DNA of 64,000 nt from Promethearchaeota archaeon (GTDB taxonomy: Archaea; Asgardarchaeota; Lokiarchaeia; Sigyniarchaeales; SOKP01): the NCBI GenBank assembly GCA_019058245.1, contig JAHPZJ010000013.1, positions 137,166-201,165 of the forward strand, in the 5' to 3' direction. Positions 1,764-42,749 of the stretch are shown here, piece by piece. The stretch's first letter is position 1. Each line of letters opens with the position of its first letter. The position numbers were made by a program, and so were the translations under genes. Below the pieces are notes generated by a model, which made no database searches, was not told the origin of the DNA, and saw only the letters and a program-made list of their open reading frames with translations.

Positions 1764-3437
1764 TTAAACTCTCCTTAAGAGATTCGTATCAATTGAATCT
1801 TTAAAAGAATCATAAAAAAGAGAGTAATATTTTTGAAAAAAATCTTTTTTTGTAGTCATTACAAACTTATTTTCTTTTTCTTCTATTTTTCCACTTGACC
1901 AAAAAATAGAACCATTAATATCAAAATCAAATTCATTTTGCCTTTTTACAATTTTACCTGCTTTTATAACATACTCAATATTTGATAAAGCTTTTTTTAT
2001 CTCTTCATAATTTTGAGAGATATCAATATCATCTATATTAATATTTAAGATATTTAAATCAGCATCAGCACCTAAACCAAGATTTCCCTTAATATTTGCT
2101 AACCCTAAGGATTTTGCGGGACTCACTCTTGTTAAACAAACAAATTCTAAAAAGTTTAATTCTTTACTGTTATTAGTTAAAGGATTATTTTTTAAGAAAT
2201 CATTGTTCATATCCTTCATGAAACTCTCACGAGCATTTTTACTTACTAACCATGTTGCTATTTCAGGAATATCTGAAATATTCGCATAATTAGGAAAATT
2301 TAAAGAAAAACTGACCTGAAATTTATTATTAACATTTAAAGCTAAATCAACTGCATTTGCCCATAAATTACATGTATTAGGATTACTTTTTTCTAAATTT
2401 CTAAAGAAAACAAATGAGTCCCCTTCAAATTCTACTGCAGAGCTTATTAATTTATAAGGATTATTATTAATATCTTCTGTCAAAAATGATGAAATTAATC
2501 TTCGATCTGATGTAATAACAGGATTTATTTGGTTAAATCCTATAAAAGAAACATCAATATCAAAATTTTGATTTTCATTCAAAAATTTAATTAATTCTTG
2601 ATTTTTTCCATCATAATTATATGAATTTGCATGAGCTATATGAAAAATTTGATCTCTTTCAAGATTTGAATCTGTAATTTGATTAGCTTTTATATTTAAT
2701 GATTTAATCTTATCTAAAATTTTAAGAAGATTGCTTTTACCAATTTCATTTTCATAACCTTCAATATGAGCATGGATTGAATGCGGTAATCCTAGTTTTT
2801 CTACACATTTTACAATATTTTCATATACATCCAAAGCAGAGAAATTATATAACCTCCCTGTTTGTGATGGGTCTTCTCTTAATTCTTTAAAATTCCAATT
2901 CTCGTTTTCAAATGGATTATAGATTTTAAATCCAAATCCATAAGTCTTTGATAATAAATCAGAAAGAAAAATTGCCATATCATCAATTTTTCCTCGTTGA
3001 TATTCTAATTCTAATGGCCAAAAATTACTAATATTCAAAAGCATAGCTTTATCGAGTATAGGTAAATGTTTAAAATTGAATATCGTTTGTTTTGCTAAAG
3101 AAGGAAAGACATTAGCTTCAAGGATAAAAGTATATCCATTTGAAATATAATTTCTGGCGATACTCTTTAATGATAATCTCTCCCAGATCTCTTTAAATTT
3201 ATTATTATTTGCACCTAATAACCTTGCCCAATTAACTTGCTGAGATGCCACATGCGTATGGATATCAATTGCGGAAGGCACGACTGTTTTTCCTTTTGCA
3301 TTGATCTCCTCGACATCTTTTTCATTGCTAAAATTTTCTACAATTTTCCCAGATTCAATTAAAATATCCTTAATTTCTCCGTTGATTTTGTTGATAGGAT
3401 CGAATATTAAACCATTTTTAATAATTAATCTGCTCAT
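1764..3437 (-). CDS. fwdA: Formylmethanofuran dehydrogenase subunit A-like amidohydrolase (divergent)
   Basis: IDIHTHVA, GFKIYNP, LGLPHSIHAH, HIAH, PAKSLGL...GNLGLGADAD motifs; in operon with fwdB and fwdD. Confidence 0.88.
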   Translation of the reverse strand: MSRLIIKNGLIFDPINKINGEIKDILIESGKIVENFSNEKDVEEINAKGKTVVPSAIDIHTHVASQQVNWARLLGANNNKFKEIWERLSLKSIARNYISNGYTFILEANVFPSLAKQTIFNFKHLPILDKAMLLNISNFWPLELEYQRGKIDDMAIFLSDLLSKTYGFGFKIYNPFENENWNFKELREDPSQTGRLYNFSALDVYENIVKCVEKLGLPHSIHAHIEGYENEIGKSNLLKILDKIKSLNIKANQITDSNLERDQIFHIAHANSYNYDGKNQELIKFLNENQNFDIDVSFIGFNQINPVITSDRRLISSFLTEDINNNPYKLISSAVEFEGDSFVFFRNLEKSNPNTCNLWANAVDLALNVNNKFQVSFSLNFPNYANISDIPEIATWLVSKNARESFMKDMNNDFLKNNPLTNNSKELNFLEFVCLTRVSPAKSLGLANIKGNLGLGADADLNILNINIDDIDISQNYEEIKKALSNIEYVIKAGKIVKRQNEFDFDINGSIFWSSGKIEEKENKFVMTTKKDFFQKYYSLFYDSFKDSIDTNLLRRV

Positions 3438-3455
3438 TTTTAAAGTACCTATTAT

Positions 3456-3830
3456 TCATTTCCCTTTAATTGACTTTAATAAATCTAGTAGATCTAAAGT
3501 TGGTTCTTGTGAAATTTCAACATTTACTTTAAGATTTTTAAAAATTAATTCATTATTCTCAATACCAGTAATTTGATTAGCCCAAATTGAAACGGGCATA
3601 ATAATAATACCTAATGGAACAGTATCATTTTGTTGTGCTTTTATAATAACACTTCCAAATTTGCTAGTTATTTTTAAATTCGATTTTGGTGTAATATCTA
3701 GATTTTTATAGTCTTCTGGATTAAGAAATCCAATTGCTAGTTTTTCCTTAATGATATTATCATTAGTCTCAGAATACTCTTTTGCTTGATCATAATCTAC
3801 CATTCTAATTGTATTTACTAATAATTCCAT
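3456..3830 (-). CDS. fwdD: Formylmethanofuran dehydrogenase subunit D-like (molybdopterin dinucleotide-binding)
   Basis: LNPEDYKNL...ITSKFGSV...GIIIMPVSIWANQI pattern; lies between fwdB and fwdA. Confidence 0.85.
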   Translation of the reverse strand: MELLVNTIRMVDYDQAKEYSETNDNIIKEKLAIGFLNPEDYKNLDITPKSNLKITSKFGSVIIKAQQNDTVPLGIIIMPVSIWANQITGIENNELIFKNLKVNVEISQEPTLDLLDLLKSIKGK

Positions 3831-3834
3831 AATT

Positions 3835-5139
3835 TCATCCTTGTTTTAGATTTCTAATAATTTTTTTAATTATTTCTTCATCTGAAAGAATATTTTTTGG
3901 AGGATTTATAATTTTTTCAAGATTTAGAGGAATATGGTCTATTCGATAGGCTAATCCATCAGTCTCAATTCCAGTTAAGGTTGAAGGTATTATTACATCT
4001 GCTATATGGAATGTTGCAGTTTTAGTATTATCTATAAGAATCAGAGGTTTCGATATTAATTTTTTACTCAGTTGTTTGGGAAAATGTGAAATTGGATCTG
4101 TACCTACTATTATTGAACAATCAAAATCATCCTTTTCTATTTTTGAAATAATTGTATCTGAGGTTTCTGTTAATTGTTGATTTGTAAATTGTAAACTATG
4201 ATTTATTCCATAGTTCGATAAAGCAACGTGATCAAAACCCCACATATTATAATGCCCTCCTAACATAAATGCAGAAATACGCCCTTTTTCATGTTTAGCA
4301 TTAATTAATTGAATTAATTCAAGCATTTCCTTAATAACACTATTACCGTTTTGAGCATTTAAAATTCCTTGCCCGATAAAGATAATCCCATTCTCTGTAC
4401 CAGTCAAATGAAGCAACAATCTCTTTAGATCGTTTTTATCTATGCCTGCTACACCTTCATCCGGAAAGCTATTAACTCTACAGCATTCATCTTTTAATAC
4501 CCGGATTAAGTCGATATCTTTCGCGGGTTCAATTTGAAGTGCCACATCACGTACTCCCATAACATTAAAAGAGGCAGTTTTAATAGGATCTATTATAATT
4601 AATGTTTTTATCTCTCGTCCTGTCATTCGAAATTTGCCACGAGAAAAAAGCACTTTATTCAATAGACGAGGAATTGATTCAGCCGCATTTGCACCCCATA
4701 AAATTAACAAATCTGATTTATTAATAGCTTCTCCGATTGTTGTTAAAGTAAGACCCGTTTCTTTAGAAGTATTCAAAACCTTTCCTTGGCATATTGTTGA
4801 GTTAGAATCAATAAAACCATTAATAAGACATGCTAATTCCATTCCTTTTAATTGAGCTTCGCAACTTACTGTTGAAAAACCATATAATAGAGGTTTAGTA
4901 GAATTTTTAATAATTTTAAATACTTGTTCAAAAGCTTCTTCTAATGTTGTTTTAATTAATTCTCCATTTTTTTTTATATAGGGATTGAAAATTCTATTTT
5001 TTGCAGATACGCGATCAAATCTTTCTTTTCCTTTCAAACAAGCTCCTATAACTTCATCTATATATAAACCATCAGTACTAATAATGATATCATCACATAA
5101 AAGAGAGCATCCTGAACAAGTAACACGTTTATTTACCAT
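3835..5139 (-). CDS. fwdB: Formylmethanofuran dehydrogenase subunit B-like (divergent)
   Basis: CSGCSLLCDDI...ACLKG Fe-S motif; DLLILWGAN, GHYN, GTDPISHFP and ETDGLAYRID. Confidence 0.88.
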   Translation of the reverse strand: MVNKRVTCSGCSLLCDDIIISTDGLYIDEVIGACLKGKERFDRVSAKNRIFNPYIKKNGELIKTTLEEAFEQVFKIIKNSTKPLLYGFSTVSCEAQLKGMELACLINGFIDSNSTICQGKVLNTSKETGLTLTTIGEAINKSDLLILWGANAAESIPRLLNKVLFSRGKFRMTGREIKTLIIIDPIKTASFNVMGVRDVALQIEPAKDIDLIRVLKDECCRVNSFPDEGVAGIDKNDLKRLLLHLTGTENGIIFIGQGILNAQNGNSVIKEMLELIQLINAKHEKGRISAFMLGGHYNMWGFDHVALSNYGINHSLQFTNQQLTETSDTIISKIEKDDFDCSIIVGTDPISHFPKQLSKKLISKPLILIDNTKTATFHIADVIIPSTLTGIETDGLAYRIDHIPLNLEKIINPPKNILSDEEIIKKIIRNLKQG

Positions 5140-5185
5140 TATATATTCCTCTTATTTCATTGAAAATTTTGTTATAATTTTTCAA

Positions 5186-5671
5186 TCAAACATAATCAAT
5201 TTTTATAGCTTCTCGAGGGCAATAGGTTTCGCAAACTCGACATTCTCTTTCTCTTCCTTCTGCTTCTATTCTTCTACAATGCTTTATCGCCAATAGTTCA
5301 CACTTTCCCCCTTTAATTTGAAATAATTGGTGTTTTTCAGGTGGATAATCTGGTGCTTTCCCACTTAAAGTTGGAGGACAATATCTCGCATTAACAGGAC
5401 AAACCGTTACGCAAATACCACACCCATCACACAATTCTTCATCAACATCAATTCGAAGCTCTTTTTCCTTTCCCTCTTCAGCGCCTAATAATTCCTTTAA
5501 TTTATCATATTCTTTTTTATATTTTGGTTCTAAGAGGGGAGTACAATCATCAACTTTTACTTTGCCTTGCAATAAATCCAGCGCAAAGGCCATGCAAGTA
5601 GGCTTTCCACACTTTTTACAATTAGTTTTGGGTAAAAATTTATATAATTCCATAAAGTTACTTACAGGAAT
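5186..5671 (-). CDS. Fe-S protein: LPKTNCxxCGxxTC domain plus 2x[4Fe-4S] ferredoxin (FwdG-like), probable ATT start
   Basis: LPKTNCKKCGKPTCMAFA, CDGCGICVTVCP, CRVCETYCP. First ATG is at 5653; an in-frame ATT at 5671 lies 7 nt behind AAGGTG. Confidence 0.8.
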   Translation of the reverse strand: MPVSNFMELYKFLPKTNCKKCGKPTCMAFALDLLQGKVKVDDCTPLLEPKYKKEYDKLKELLGAEEGKEKELRIDVDEELCDGCGICVTVCPVNARYCPPTLSGKAPDYPPEKHQLFQIKGGKCELLAIKHCRRIEAEGRERECRVCETYCPREAIKIDYV

Positions 5672-5915
5672 TTAAAAACACCTTGACAATTTAATTTTAT
5701 AACGTTTTCCAGTAAAGAATAATATTTTGAAATTTATTAATTTCTTTAGTTTATTTATTATAAAATCCTCATAATAGGAACTTAATTTATTAACTAAAAA
5801 TCCAGAAACTTTCATAAAATATTAAAGAAAAAGTTAAAGCGACTTCTTTTCTTCCTTAAATTAATTAATAATTCTATAAATAGTATAATCAGAAAAATTT
5901 ATGAGATAAGAAATT

Positions 5916-6767
5916 ATGACAGAAAAAGAGATACCAGATATAGATTTAAAAGAGATGATGATAGACGAGAGAGAAAAAAACATTAAAAGTAATATGGATA
6001 AGATTAAACATAAAATCGTAGTAATTTCAGGAAAGGGGGGAGTAGGTAAAACCACAGTTGCGATTAATCTTGCGATGAGCTTAGCAAGTGTAGGTTTGAG
6101 AGTTGGAATACTTGATGTAGATATTACAGGACCAAATGTAATAAAAATGCTTGGAATCAGTTCAGAATTGAAACCTAGAGTTGATGCTGAAGCTAAACGA
6201 TTTTATCCTATTGATGGACCTTTAAACCTTAAGGTTATGAGTATGGCATTTTTAACTCTTAATCCAGATGAACCTGTAATTTGGCGAGGACCAATGAAAA
6301 TGAGTGCTGTAAGACAGTTTCTAGGAGATGCTGAGTGGGGAGAACTTGATTACTTAATTTGTGATTTACCTCCTGGTACATCTGATGAAACGTTAGATAT
6401 ATTACAGCTTATTCCTGATGAAAATGTTATAGTTGTTACAACACCTCAGGAAGTTGCTTTAATGGATGCAAGAAAAACAATAAAAATGGCTCTTGTAATG
6501 CAGAGAAAAATACTAGGGATTATTGAGAATATGTCTGGTTTTGATTGTCCACATTGTGGAAAATATATTGATTTATATCCTCCAGGTGGAGCAGAAAAAG
6601 CGAGTGTAGATTTTAATATTTCTCTTTTAGGTAAAATACCTTTTGAAATAGAAGTTAGTCAACAAGGAGATCAAGGATTGCCATTTATTATTAAATATCC
6701 TGAAAGTAAATCTGCTAAAGCATTCAAAGATGCTGTTAAAAAAATTAGAAATTTATTAGAAAATTAA
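5916..6767 (+). CDS. apbC: Mrp/ApbC/NBP35 Fe-S cluster carrier ATPase
   Basis: SGKGGVGKT, DVDITGP, VIWRGP, DLPPGTSD, VTTPQ, ENMSGFDCPHC. Confidence 0.95.
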   Translation: MTEKEIPDIDLKEMMIDEREKNIKSNMDKIKHKIVVISGKGGVGKTTVAINLAMSLASVGLRVGILDVDITGPNVIKMLGISSELKPRVDAEAKRFYPIDGPLNLKVMSMAFLTLNPDEPVIWRGPMKMSAVRQFLGDAEWGELDYLICDLPPGTSDETLDILQLIPDENVIVVTTPQEVALMDARKTIKMALVMQRKILGIIENMSGFDCPHCGKYIDLYPPGGAEKASVDFNISLLGKIPFEIEVSQQGDQGLPFIIKYPESKSAKAFKDAVKKIRNLLEN

Positions 6768-8640: not shown

Positions 8641-8793
8641 TTATAGATTTATATTAATTTTAATATCTTTAATATTATCTGGAACTCCTTTTGTTGAATT
8701 TAAATAACCTATTATTATATTTGTAAGCATCTCTTGCATAAAATCTTTTAAGGGTATCTTTTTTTCATTTACTTCAAGTATAACTTTTAGCAT
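8641..8793 (-). CDS. 50-aa protein resembling the C-terminal domain of archaeal MobB
   Basis: Manually translated MLKVILEVNEKKIPLKDFMQEMLTNIIIGYLNSTKGVPDNIKDIKININL*; below the ORF-track length cutoff. Confidence 0.7.
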   Translation of the reverse strand: MLKVILEVNEKKIPLKDFMQEMLTNIIIGYLNSTKGVPDNIKDIKININL

Positions 8794-8945: not shown

Positions 8946-9014
8946 TACCAAAGACCTTGCAAGGTAAGTCATCCTTCTACTAGCATTTTTTAGAAAGACT
9001 CATTCTATTTGGTA
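8946..9014 (-). promoter_or_regulatory. Eukaryote-like SECIS element in the 3' UTR
   Basis: Minus-strand RNA UACCAAA-UAGA-AUGA-GUCUUUCUA-AAAAAUGCUAG-UAGAAGGAU-GA-...-UUUGGUA: AUGA/GA core, 9-bp upper stem, A-rich apical loop, 7-bp lower stem. Confidence 0.85.
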
Positions 9015-9015
9015 A

Positions 9016-9276
9016 TTATATTAGAAATGTGCTAATTTTTTTAATTAATTCGATATAATCATTGTTCAAAGAGATTTGAGTGGAAAAGATCTTTATAAAA
9101 CTTATAACCGCACACCCTCATCCTCCAGTATTATTATCACCAGTATCAACTCCGCTATTTATATACAAGATAACAAGAACTGTAATAATCGATCCAATTC
9201 CTATTATTATTAGTACTGAAATAAGAATCTTCTTAATTTTTCCTTTTCTTAATTCAGTTAAATTAGATTCACTCAT
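9016..9276 (-). CDS. Putative single-pass membrane selenoprotein (86 aa, Sec53 in GGUGC)
   Basis: ATG 9276, in-frame TGA 9120-9118, then 33 more sense codons to TAA 9018-9016; SECIS begins right after the stop. Confidence 0.8.
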
Positions 9277-9370
9277 ATCTTATCCCTTTTAATTAAATAT
9301 ACCAATTTGTTATATATTAATAAAAAGTATTTAAAAATTTTTTTTGGAAGTTATTATTACACAATTAAAT

Positions 9371-11999: not shown

Positions 12000-12509
12000 A
12001 TGACAGAACCAAGTAAGCAAATTAGTCAAAAGGCTTTTGAATTAGGAAAAAAAAATGAATTAACATGTACGGGATGTGCTCAATCAGCAACAGCAGCCGT
12101 TCTTGATTCGTTGGGGATATGGAGTGAAGATGTTTTTAAAGCAGCAAGTGGTTTAGCAGATGGATTAGGATTGACGGGAGACGGTTCATGCGGAGCCTTA
12201 GTAGGGGCTTCAATGGTAATCGGATATTTATTTGGGAGAGAACGGAAAGATTTTAAAGATAGGATGGCACCGCTGAAGTCTTACAAAATGGTTAAACAAT
12301 TACATGATAAATATCTAAAAGAGTATGGATCCTGTCGATGTCATGACGTTCAAGAAAAGTTGGTGGGAAGGACATACAATTTCTGGGATCCTGCTGATAT
12401 GGAAGCAGCTTTCAATTCAGATGTGGGTGAGCATTGTTCAACTCTAGTGGGTAATATTGCTAAAATTGCTACCGAAATAATCCTAGAAAATGGATTTATT
12501 CCTAAATAA
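12000..12509 (+). CDS. C_GCAxxG_C_C family putative redox protein
   Basis: GCAQS, SCGALVG, GSCRC, HCS. Confidence 0.9.
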   Translation: MTEPSKQISQKAFELGKKNELTCTGCAQSATAAVLDSLGIWSEDVFKAASGLADGLGLTGDGSCGALVGASMVIGYLFGRERKDFKDRMAPLKSYKMVKQLHDKYLKEYGSCRCHDVQEKLVGRTYNFWDPADMEAAFNSDVGEHCSTLVGNIAKIATEIILENGFIPK

Positions 12510-42014: not shown

Positions 42015-42749
42015 TTATAAATTCTTTAAAATTATTTTTTCATATATATCTATTTCTTTAAAATAATTATCTTTATATCCAATTTCCCAATTTGAATTTG
42101 AAATTCTTTGCCGCAATGATTCTAAATTAAGCACAGATCTAAAATATAATAATAATATGATTCTAATCGAATGTGACTTTAAAATTTTGTAGTTCTCTAA
42201 TTCATCTAAAGCATTAAACAAATAATCTAAGTCTGGAAAAAATTTACTTAATATTTGTGTGCAGAGTGTTTCTAAATCAGAATCCTTTGAATTTAATATT
42301 CGAAATAAATTCTTTTTCATACTATTTGGAAATTCTTTTAAATTTAAAATTACTCGAAGAGCATTAATTTTAATTGGAGTATAATCATCATTTATAGCAT
42401 TATTTATTAAGTCTATAACTGGGTCAGTTATATCAGAATTTGCAGTAATTTTTTCAATCGCTTGCATTATCTCATTTCGAATCCATCTATCTGATGTATA
42501 ATAGGCCTCCAATAAAAATGTTAGATACTTCTCATTTAATATTGTTGTTTTACCAATCTCTCCTATAAAAAATATTAAATTTATTTTGACCTTATTAAAA
42601 ATCTGTTTATTTAAATTCTGAATTAAGTAATCTATATATATTAGATAATCCTTATTTGGGTTTTCACTTATTTTTATTAAAAAATCATTTATAACTTCTG
42701 GATCTTTGGCATCTTTTATTTCTTCAAAGTCCTTATTCAAAAATTCCAT
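42015..42749 (-). CDS. HEAT-repeat protein
   Basis: DRWIRNEIMQAIEKI and DDYTPIKINALRVI repeats. Confidence 0.7.
   Translation of the reverse strand: MEFLNKDFEEIKDAKDPEVINDFLIKISENPNKDYLIYIDYLIQNLNKQIFNKVKINLIFFIGEIGKTTILNEKYLTFLLEAYYTSDRWIRNEIMQAIEKITANSDITDPVIDLINNAINDDYTPIKINALRVILNLKEFPNSMKKNLFRILNSKDSDLETLCTQILSKFFPDLDYLFNALDELENYKILKSHSIRIILLLYFRSVLNLESLRQRISNSNWEIGYKDNYFKEIDIYEKIILKNL

Follow-up and report, generated by a model that had tools for sequence, protein, structure and literature searches.

On the minus strand of the window, by which we mean the whole stretch of 64,000 nucleotides that was analysed, there is almost certainly a stand-alone gene for a small, one-helix membrane selenoprotein of 86 residues. 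Comparative sequence analysis indicates that it is part of a real and widespread selenoprotein family that uses a known recoding signal and whose function we infer. Over half of the Lokiarchaeia genomes searched contain the family, with no Cys homolog detected, and it would, if our reading holds, expose selenocysteine (Sec) at the outside of an archaeal membrane in a layout absent from the listed selenoprotein families. Taken with two further families of this genome that carry a SECIS and are likewise unlisted, it shows that the Asgard selenoproteome has been undercounted and that SECIS-first searches are needed.

The locus and its reading frame

Reading out the sequence gives an 86-codon frame at window positions 9276-9016 (minus strand), with TGA as codon 53 (9120-9118), Cys55 encoded by TGT (9114-9112) and a TAA stop (9018-9016). 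This reproduces the frame proposed in an earlier note on this DNA, which had also observed, correctly, that the ORF track misses the real frame and calls an antisense ORF instead: the listing holds a 52-aa stub ending at the UGA and a 70-aa antisense ORF (9080-9292) and nothing longer. The version stored in protein collections is likewise the 52-aa stub. We rejected the antisense ORF as a gene, since stops interrupt its frame in 29 of 89 relatives as against none in the sense head. The features of the locus are as follows.

9016..9276, minus strand: full frame of 86 aa, with its one in-frame UGA (codon 53) read as Sec (translation and orthologs)
9229..9276, minus strand: basic N-terminal segment, residues 1-16, predicted to be cytoplasmic (K/R counts)
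9160..9228, minus strand: the one hydrophobic helix, residues 17-39, which is predicted to act as a signal anchor (hydropathy and AlphaFold)
9121..9159, minus strand: polar flexible linker, Gly/Asp/Asn-rich with a Gly-Gly end, residues 40-52 (family composition; disordered in the model)
9118..9120, minus strand: in-frame TGA, inferred Sec53 (TGA in 89/89 sequences)
9112..9114, minus strand: Cys55, the +2 partner in the U-x-C motif of this member (UxC in 56/89)
9019..9117, minus strand: post-Sec tail of 33 aa, amphipathic and weakly constrained, spanning the UGA-SECIS spacer
8946..9014, minus strand: lokiSECIS element (fold, covariation and family model; shape as in PMC4989117)
8954..8965, minus strand: side hairpin branching from the 3' strand of the internal loop of the SECIS (93% paired, little covariation)

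The AlphaFold model of the 86-aa protein is of low confidence (pLDDT 62) and contains two helices. The first spans residues 4-41, with pLDDT 73-82 in residues 17-39, and the linker is disordered.

The SECIS element

The element 3' to the frame comprises an AUGA (9003-9000), a 9-bp stem (8999-8991/8979-8971), an 11-nt loop (8990-8980) that begins with five adenines and ends in G, and a GA (8970-8969). Its lower stem pairs 9014-9008 with 8952-8946. AUGA, a 9-bp stem, an 11-nt loop with A first and G last, and GA are the features of the lokiSECIS described by Mariotti et al. (PMC4989117). The earlier note had described a eukaryote-like AUGA/GA SECIS lying directly after the stop and closed by UACCAAA/UUUGGUA, with its core about 115 nt past the UGA, and this description agrees with the lokiSECIS shape and lower stem seen here. 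A spacer of 114 nt separates UGA and AUGA, and the stop codon is 12 nt from the AUGA at this locus and in most of the genus. What was missing from that description is a side hairpin (8965-8954), which turns the element into a three-way junction.

Taken alone, the SECIS of this locus folds at -16 kcal/mol (z -2.0), a modest gain over shuffles. The case for it comes from an alignment of 23 orthologs, in which 91% of the cells pair and two-sided changes are seen in 12 of the 19 pairs. None of 500 shuffles matched either the paired percentage or the covariation score, a control that the relatedness of the orthologs can inflate; slid controls were 34-50% paired. The element is kept and covaries, and it stands behind every one of the 89 copies of the gene. 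Searched with a covariance model made from the family elements only, the genome yields nine sites with E no higher than 1 and no others. Each of these lies 3' of an ORF with an in-frame UGA, and four of them belong to the two VhuD genes, VhuU and PrxL. With this query, no significant match was obtained in three near-complete genomes of a sister family, and no Rfam family matches the element.

The side hairpin also occurs 3' of VhuD, VhuU and PrxL in this genome. Usually with GCA or GCG in its loop, it turns up again in SECIS elements of various gene families, as well as in a second order of the class, and it is present in the SECIS of three short-spacer loci (L113, L115 and L159). We found no mention of it in the accessible parts of the two lokiSECIS papers. 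Being conserved, it is a candidate binding site in a system without SBP2.

Across the 89 sequences the SECIS lies 34-122 nt 3' of the UGA, at a distance typical of each lineage, and in some members the coding frame runs into or through the element. The 114 nt at the present locus exceed the 80 nt of VhuU in the same genome. According to PMC4989117, a UGA very near a lokiSECIS is a stop. At seven loci (L113, L115, L159, L108, L091, L122 and L124) the UGA-to-AUGA distance is as short as 34-42 nt, with an unchanged TGA context; these loci may show how small lokiSECIS spacing can become, or the UGA may act as a stop there. The natural series of distances in the family makes the proposed minimal-distance requirement of the lokiSECIS testable.

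Selenocysteine machinery of the host genome

The host genome (3.09 Mb, 29% GC, 76% complete) encodes SecS, above the model cut-off, and, about 4 kb away from it, an EFSec-like factor (E 9e-70), which like PSTK (E 2e-41) is below the model cut-off. Just before SecS lies a tRNA with a UCA anticodon, a long variable arm and a T-loop insert, the insert being probably the reason why it falls below the Rfam cut-off. An intron-containing tRNA-Sec has been described for Loki, and the UCA tRNA fits it; ARAGORN with default settings did not call this tRNA, and lowering the threshold produced noise. The machinery that the earlier note had wanted confirmed is therefore present as SecS, EFSec, PSTK and a UCA tRNA, with SelD not found in this 76%-complete genome, where the TIGR00476 matches are weak paralogs. 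By the criterion of PMC11227280, at least three components mark a genome as having Sec machinery, and this genome has them. Over the class, SecS is present in 152 of 161 Lokiarchaeia genomes. Among 1916 long ORFs of the genome, 1377 end in TAA and 273 (about 14%) in TGA, which shows that TGA is not a general sense codon; genetic code 4 was rejected on the same count.

Distribution and genomic context of the family

Iterated searches recovered 89 distinct sequences from 84 genomes, each with an in-frame TGA and a SECIS, and all codon, motif and tail counts given here refer to these sequences. With seven further genomes added by hand, one of them with an element of shorter loop, the family is verified in 91 of 161 Lokiarchaeia genomes. 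It occurs in this genome's own family and in one family of another order, and the named records with close orthologs are Promethearchaeota/Promethearchaeia MAGs, including Loki_b32. Identities range from 17 to 83%; the relatives are not independent, and family counts and shuffle statistics overstate significance. All 89 have TGA as the Sec codon and none has TAA or TAG, even though TAA closes 1377 of 1916 long ORFs in the present genome; a SECIS follows in all, so that the homologs proposed earlier as a check align at the UGA, do not end there in UAA or UAG, and conserve the SECIS alongside it. One ortholog (L047) has a second in-frame TGA three codons past the first (U-P-C-U).

A phylum-wide search with these queries returned only generic helix matches outside the class Lokiarchaeia, matches weaker than about 1e-6 being mostly generic helices in long ORFs. 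Two single-helix small proteins with two Cys residues (L182:4001-4234 and L183:1095-1292) are encoded directly behind an ECF S-component gene. Their similarity to the family is marginal, and one of the two contigs carries SmpB and is, consequently, probably bacterial. In another Asgard class, two proteins of about 106 aa (L170 and L174) without Sec have an N-terminus of basic character, then a single helix, a segment rich in Cys and an amphipathic end. They share the layout of the family and are at most candidate relatives.

Neighbouring genes are kept only within genera, and we observed no conserved functional neighbour. The genes 3' of the family member differ between genera and are sometimes separated from it by opposite-strand genes, which argues against a leader peptide. 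As gene and SECIS stay together through these different neighbourhoods, the element evidently travels with the gene, and the neighbours give no functional hint. In the window itself, a 50-aa ORF without Pfam match (8641-8793, minus strand) is the next gene downstream that 39 loci of the genus have in common; it seems to resemble a MobB C-terminal domain. By eye, positions 1764-6767 hold formylmethanofuran dehydrogenase-like A/D/B, a polyferredoxin-like ORF and an Mrp/Nbp35 ATPase. At 12000-12509 (plus strand), 2.7 kb away, is the Cys form of a C_GCAxxG_C_C putative redox protein (PF09719), a family with Sec forms in bacteria.

Several genomes carry a second copy of the family. A second-copy subfamily is distinguished by an Asp-rich linker and a C-x(1-3)-U motif with His or Lys next. 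Its loci (L024, L161-L163, L165-L168 and L171), mostly second copies, have a longer hydrophilic tail and a SECIS about 100-123 nt downstream, which is not confirmed for L165.

Architecture of the protein

Four parts make up the conserved core: an N-terminus of basic character, a single helix, a Gly linker and Sec. The helix is strongly hydrophobic, with a family mean Kyte-Doolittle value of 3.0 over 21 residues. On average 4.4 K/R residues precede it, as against 0.17 between helix and Sec, where D/E average 1.3. This excess of K/R before the helix is seen in 89/89 and, by the positive-inside rule, predicts that Sec is outside, in line with the N-in topology that had been read from the basic N-terminus of this member. 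The linker is 5-30 residues long, acidic and Gly-rich. Gly occupies positions -1, -2 and -3 of Sec in 68, 63 and 65 of the 89 sequences, and the third positions of the Gly codons vary.

In 80 of the 89 sequences there is a Cys no more than four residues away from Sec: at +2 (UxC) in 56, encoded by TGT in 45 and TGC in 11, and at other spacings in 24 (+4 in 10, -2 in seven, elsewhere in seven); the remaining nine have none. The motif is therefore typical and not defining. Thus, of the earlier proposal of a new small selenoprotein with a UxC redox motif, the new small single-pass selenoprotein stands and the motif as its hallmark does not.

The tail past Sec varies from 1 to 61 residues and ends one or two residues after Sec in 10 of the 89. 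It contains 38 stops as compared with 137 +/- 11 in shuffled spacers, and three of the four indels after the UGA and away from the SECIS are in frame. Its dN/dS is 0.65, as against 0.36 for the head, and its amphipathicity exceeds that of its own shuffles (mean z about 1.0, 86% positive). Tail length correlates with the UGA-SECIS distance (rho 0.77), and 67 of the 89 translate at least 80% of the spacer. By these patterns the tail is coding but loosely constrained, its signal being weak at the level of sequence, and it fills the UGA-SECIS spacer.

Relationship to known families and the missing Cys form

The protein has no match in Pfam, NCBIfam or PDB, including the domains of SelD, hydrogenase, Hdr and the thioredoxin fold. 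A profile search of 1.84 billion proteins gave 80 matches, mostly of 39-64 residues. The short ones that were inspected end at the Sec position, and the longer forms with Trp, among those inspected, were dismissed as gene-caller artefacts in which TGA is read as Trp. No clean Cys ortholog aligned to Sec was found among the class loci or in this profile search, and the usual Sec/Cys pair test therefore finds no pair. Of the homolog evidence anticipated earlier, paired UGA and Cys codons are hence lacking, and the coding signal past the UGA is there in weakly constrained form. The Cys-homolog requirement is a curation filter of published surveys and not part of the mechanism.

Several candidates for a Cys form were set aside. 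The C-N-C of L177, which retains the SECIS, arose from a local duplication. L027 (C-G-C), in a genome of another family, is GC-rich, lacks a SECIS and is most likely antisense to another gene. The Gly-rich L079/L085, with neither U nor C, and the Cys-rich L112/L114/L126 and L170/L174 of another class were left out as unproven. A pattern scan of metagenomes found nothing.

The 2024 survey and the 2026 review (PMC11227280, PMC13188914) list seven Asgard selenoprotein families, out of eleven known across the archaea; most were detected through their likeness to families already described, and no eukaryote-specific selenoprotein family is reported. The present family is absent from these lists. 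A 2016 SECIS-first search of Loki reported no further candidate. We found no description of the family in the literature searched, which was mostly without subscription papers, and priority is not certain. Surveys based on homology and Cys forms probably missed it because databases contain stubs and no Cys ortholog turned up. By every mechanistic feature tested, all of them read from sequence, the gene is a lokiSECIS-dependent selenoprotein gene.

Proposed function and alternative explanations

We propose that the ribosome reads UGA53 as Sec, directed by the 3' lokiSECIS as for VhuD, VhuU and PrxL; insertion of Sec at this codon is very probable. The basic N-terminus would remain cytoplasmic and the helix would act as an uncleaved anchor, holding Sec on a flexible Gly-rich arm some 5-30 residues outside the membrane, and this N-in/Sec-out anchoring appears likely. 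Given both, we lean towards the selenol being the working part, a tethered surface redox site. Where a neighbouring Cys is present, Sec could cycle with it as a selenenylsulfide; otherwise it might do so with a second molecule or a partner protein, and the targets would be disulfides or sulfur species in the envelope. A flexible Gly-rich arm bearing Sec serves redox exchange in thioredoxin reductase. The tail would be secondary, filling the stretch by which the SECIS is set at a sufficient distance from the UGA and being kept stop-free; as it tends to an amphipathic helix, it could keep the Sec arm close to the surface of the membrane. The reading as a whole, a membrane selenoprotein with a tethered surface selenol redox site, has in our estimate about an even chance. 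Against this reading stand the failure to find a Cys ortholog or, in this 76%-complete genome, SelD, the nine members without nearby Cys and the lack of a conserved functional neighbour. Moreover, a DsbD/CcdA reductant supply that could re-reduce an outer redox site was not found in this incomplete genome, which has a single DsbD_2 match.

The main rival to a redox site, though an unlikely one, has the selenol binding soft metals (Hg, Cd, Cu, Ni or similar), either to scavenge them at the cell surface or to pass them on, in detoxification or uptake. The Cys spacing varies freely, as expected of ligands on a flexible loop; the paralogous subfamily joins an Asp-rich linker to C-x(1-3)-U and then His or Lys; and two proteins of similar layout with two Cys (P0067 and P0077; E 3e-4 and 6e-4) lie directly behind an ECF-transporter S component. 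However, these matches are marginal and probably helix-driven, lack the Gly-Gly-Sec context and are on other contigs, no metal transporter is a conserved neighbour, and the nine members without Cys near Sec speak against it. It is improbable that Gly-Gly-Sec-x-Cys with its hydrophobic tail is a processing signal that is cleaved or lipidated, or that a selenopeptide is shed. The motif does resemble the Gly/Cys sorting motifs of MYXO-CTERM and related signals, and the tail evolves fast with its amphipathic character kept, as a signal might; but a cargo domain is lacking, the sequence past the helix shows no signal-peptidase consensus, and the tail is reduced to one or two residues in 10 members.

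Of comparably low probability is an archaeal counterpart or ancestor of SelK/SelS with cytoplasmic Sec, active in membrane-protein quality control. Small size, one N-terminal helix, Gly-richness before Sec and the 10 of 89 members ending one or two residues past it would agree with this, the more so as SelK and SelS are themselves grouped by layout (PMC10650576). Against it are the acidic linker, the prediction of Sec outside in 89/89 and the restriction of the family, with these queries, to Lokiarchaeia. Slightly more doubtful still is a selenium sink or switch, whose function would be the ratio of full-length to truncated product, varying with the supply of selenium, or the consumption of Sec-tRNA. 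The protein is minimal, with little constraint beyond helix, Gly linker and Sec, and its truncated form would remain a membrane-anchored peptide; yet one Sec per chain is poor storage, and that a Cys partner and a Gly arm have been kept speaks for a chemical role. Least probable, and very much so, is a plain stop, the UGA ending a 52-aa protein and the hairpin having another role or serving another gene. That databases store truncated forms, that the tail is poorly conserved, that about 14% of the long ORFs here terminate at UGA and that termination occurs where a UGA is very near a lokiSECIS (PMC4989117) would all allow for it. Nevertheless, none of the 89 has TAA or TAG, stops are depleted and indels mostly in frame past the UGA, a Cys is conserved at +2, the SECIS follows every copy whatever the neighbours, and the 334-aa upstream gene has no in-frame UGA.

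Further unlisted families in the same genome

Two paralogous genes for proteins of about 155 aa (L196; G000:C10:58284-58772 and C10:60103-60560, minus strand) contain a tandem TGA-TGA, as C-U-U in one of them, and each is followed, at a distance of about 120 nt, by a separate lokiSECIS. All 25 top loci conserve C-U-U together with what comes after it, and a SECIS was found in 23 of them. Homologs occur in 134 of 161 genomes, there is no Pfam match, and an arsenate-reductase-like ORF was noted nearby by eye. These genes probably represent a second unlisted selenoprotein family. A third is suggested by two tandem genes for small two-helix proteins (L195; G000:C27:41629-41880 and 42118-42333, plus strand) with U-G in the inter-helix loop and a SECIS each; TGA and SECIS are also found in three other genomes.

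Comparison with known systems

The recoding signal is the same as in the VhuD-HdrA, VhuU and PrxL genes, which have a lokiSECIS, or Asgard type I eSECIS-like element, by their stop (PMC4989117, PMC11227280). The protein itself is unrelated to the seven listed Asgard families (SelD, FrhA/VhuU, HdrA, FrhD/VhuD, PrxL, AhpF-N-like and DsbA-like), from which it differs in being membrane-anchored, without a folded domain and without a detected Cys homolog.

MYXO-CTERM, CFI-box-CTERM and GlyGly-CTERM signals consist of a Gly run, a Cys-like residue and a hydrophobic stretch. The family shows the same succession, but it differs from them in lacking a cargo domain and a basic cluster after the tail, and in having a dispensable tail; among 24 members there was no match to an NCBIfam CTERM model at E<1.

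The closest likeness in layout discussed here is to SELENOK and SELENOS, for which we took the criteria from a review (PMC10650576). These are grouped by layout and not by sequence, and SelS forms a selenenylsulfide according to the same review. Shared with them are the small size, the single N-terminal TM helix and the unstructured Gly-rich segment before Sec, and some family members end in G-U-G or G-U-C. In contrast, the linker of about 12 residues is acidic here and Gly/Pro/positively charged there. Sec is second or third from the C-terminus in SELENOK and SELENOS, whereas 33 residues follow it in the present protein, with short tails in 10 of 89. Theirs are type III proteins with cytosolic Sec, whereas the charge bias predicts Sec outside in 89/89. 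The SelK_SelG model has no match at the locus, and the SelK/SelS families are not among the Pfam matches listed. We accordingly rejected membership, which fails on linker charge, on the position of Sec in most members and on the sequence test. The earlier note had suspected convergence, and the likeness is best treated so, given the lack of sequence similarity, the acidic linker and the opposite predicted topology; its argument from the 33 residues after Sec is only partial, since tails span 1-61 residues and 10 of 89 end one or two past Sec. That the family is a surviving, pre-eukaryotic archaeal relative of SelK/SelS, with the short-tailed G-G-U-G/C forms nearest the ancestral state, we hold to be improbable, although sequences this short and divergent limit what our searches can tell. 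By analogy, it may nonetheless work as SelK and SelS do, as a membrane-tethered selenol.
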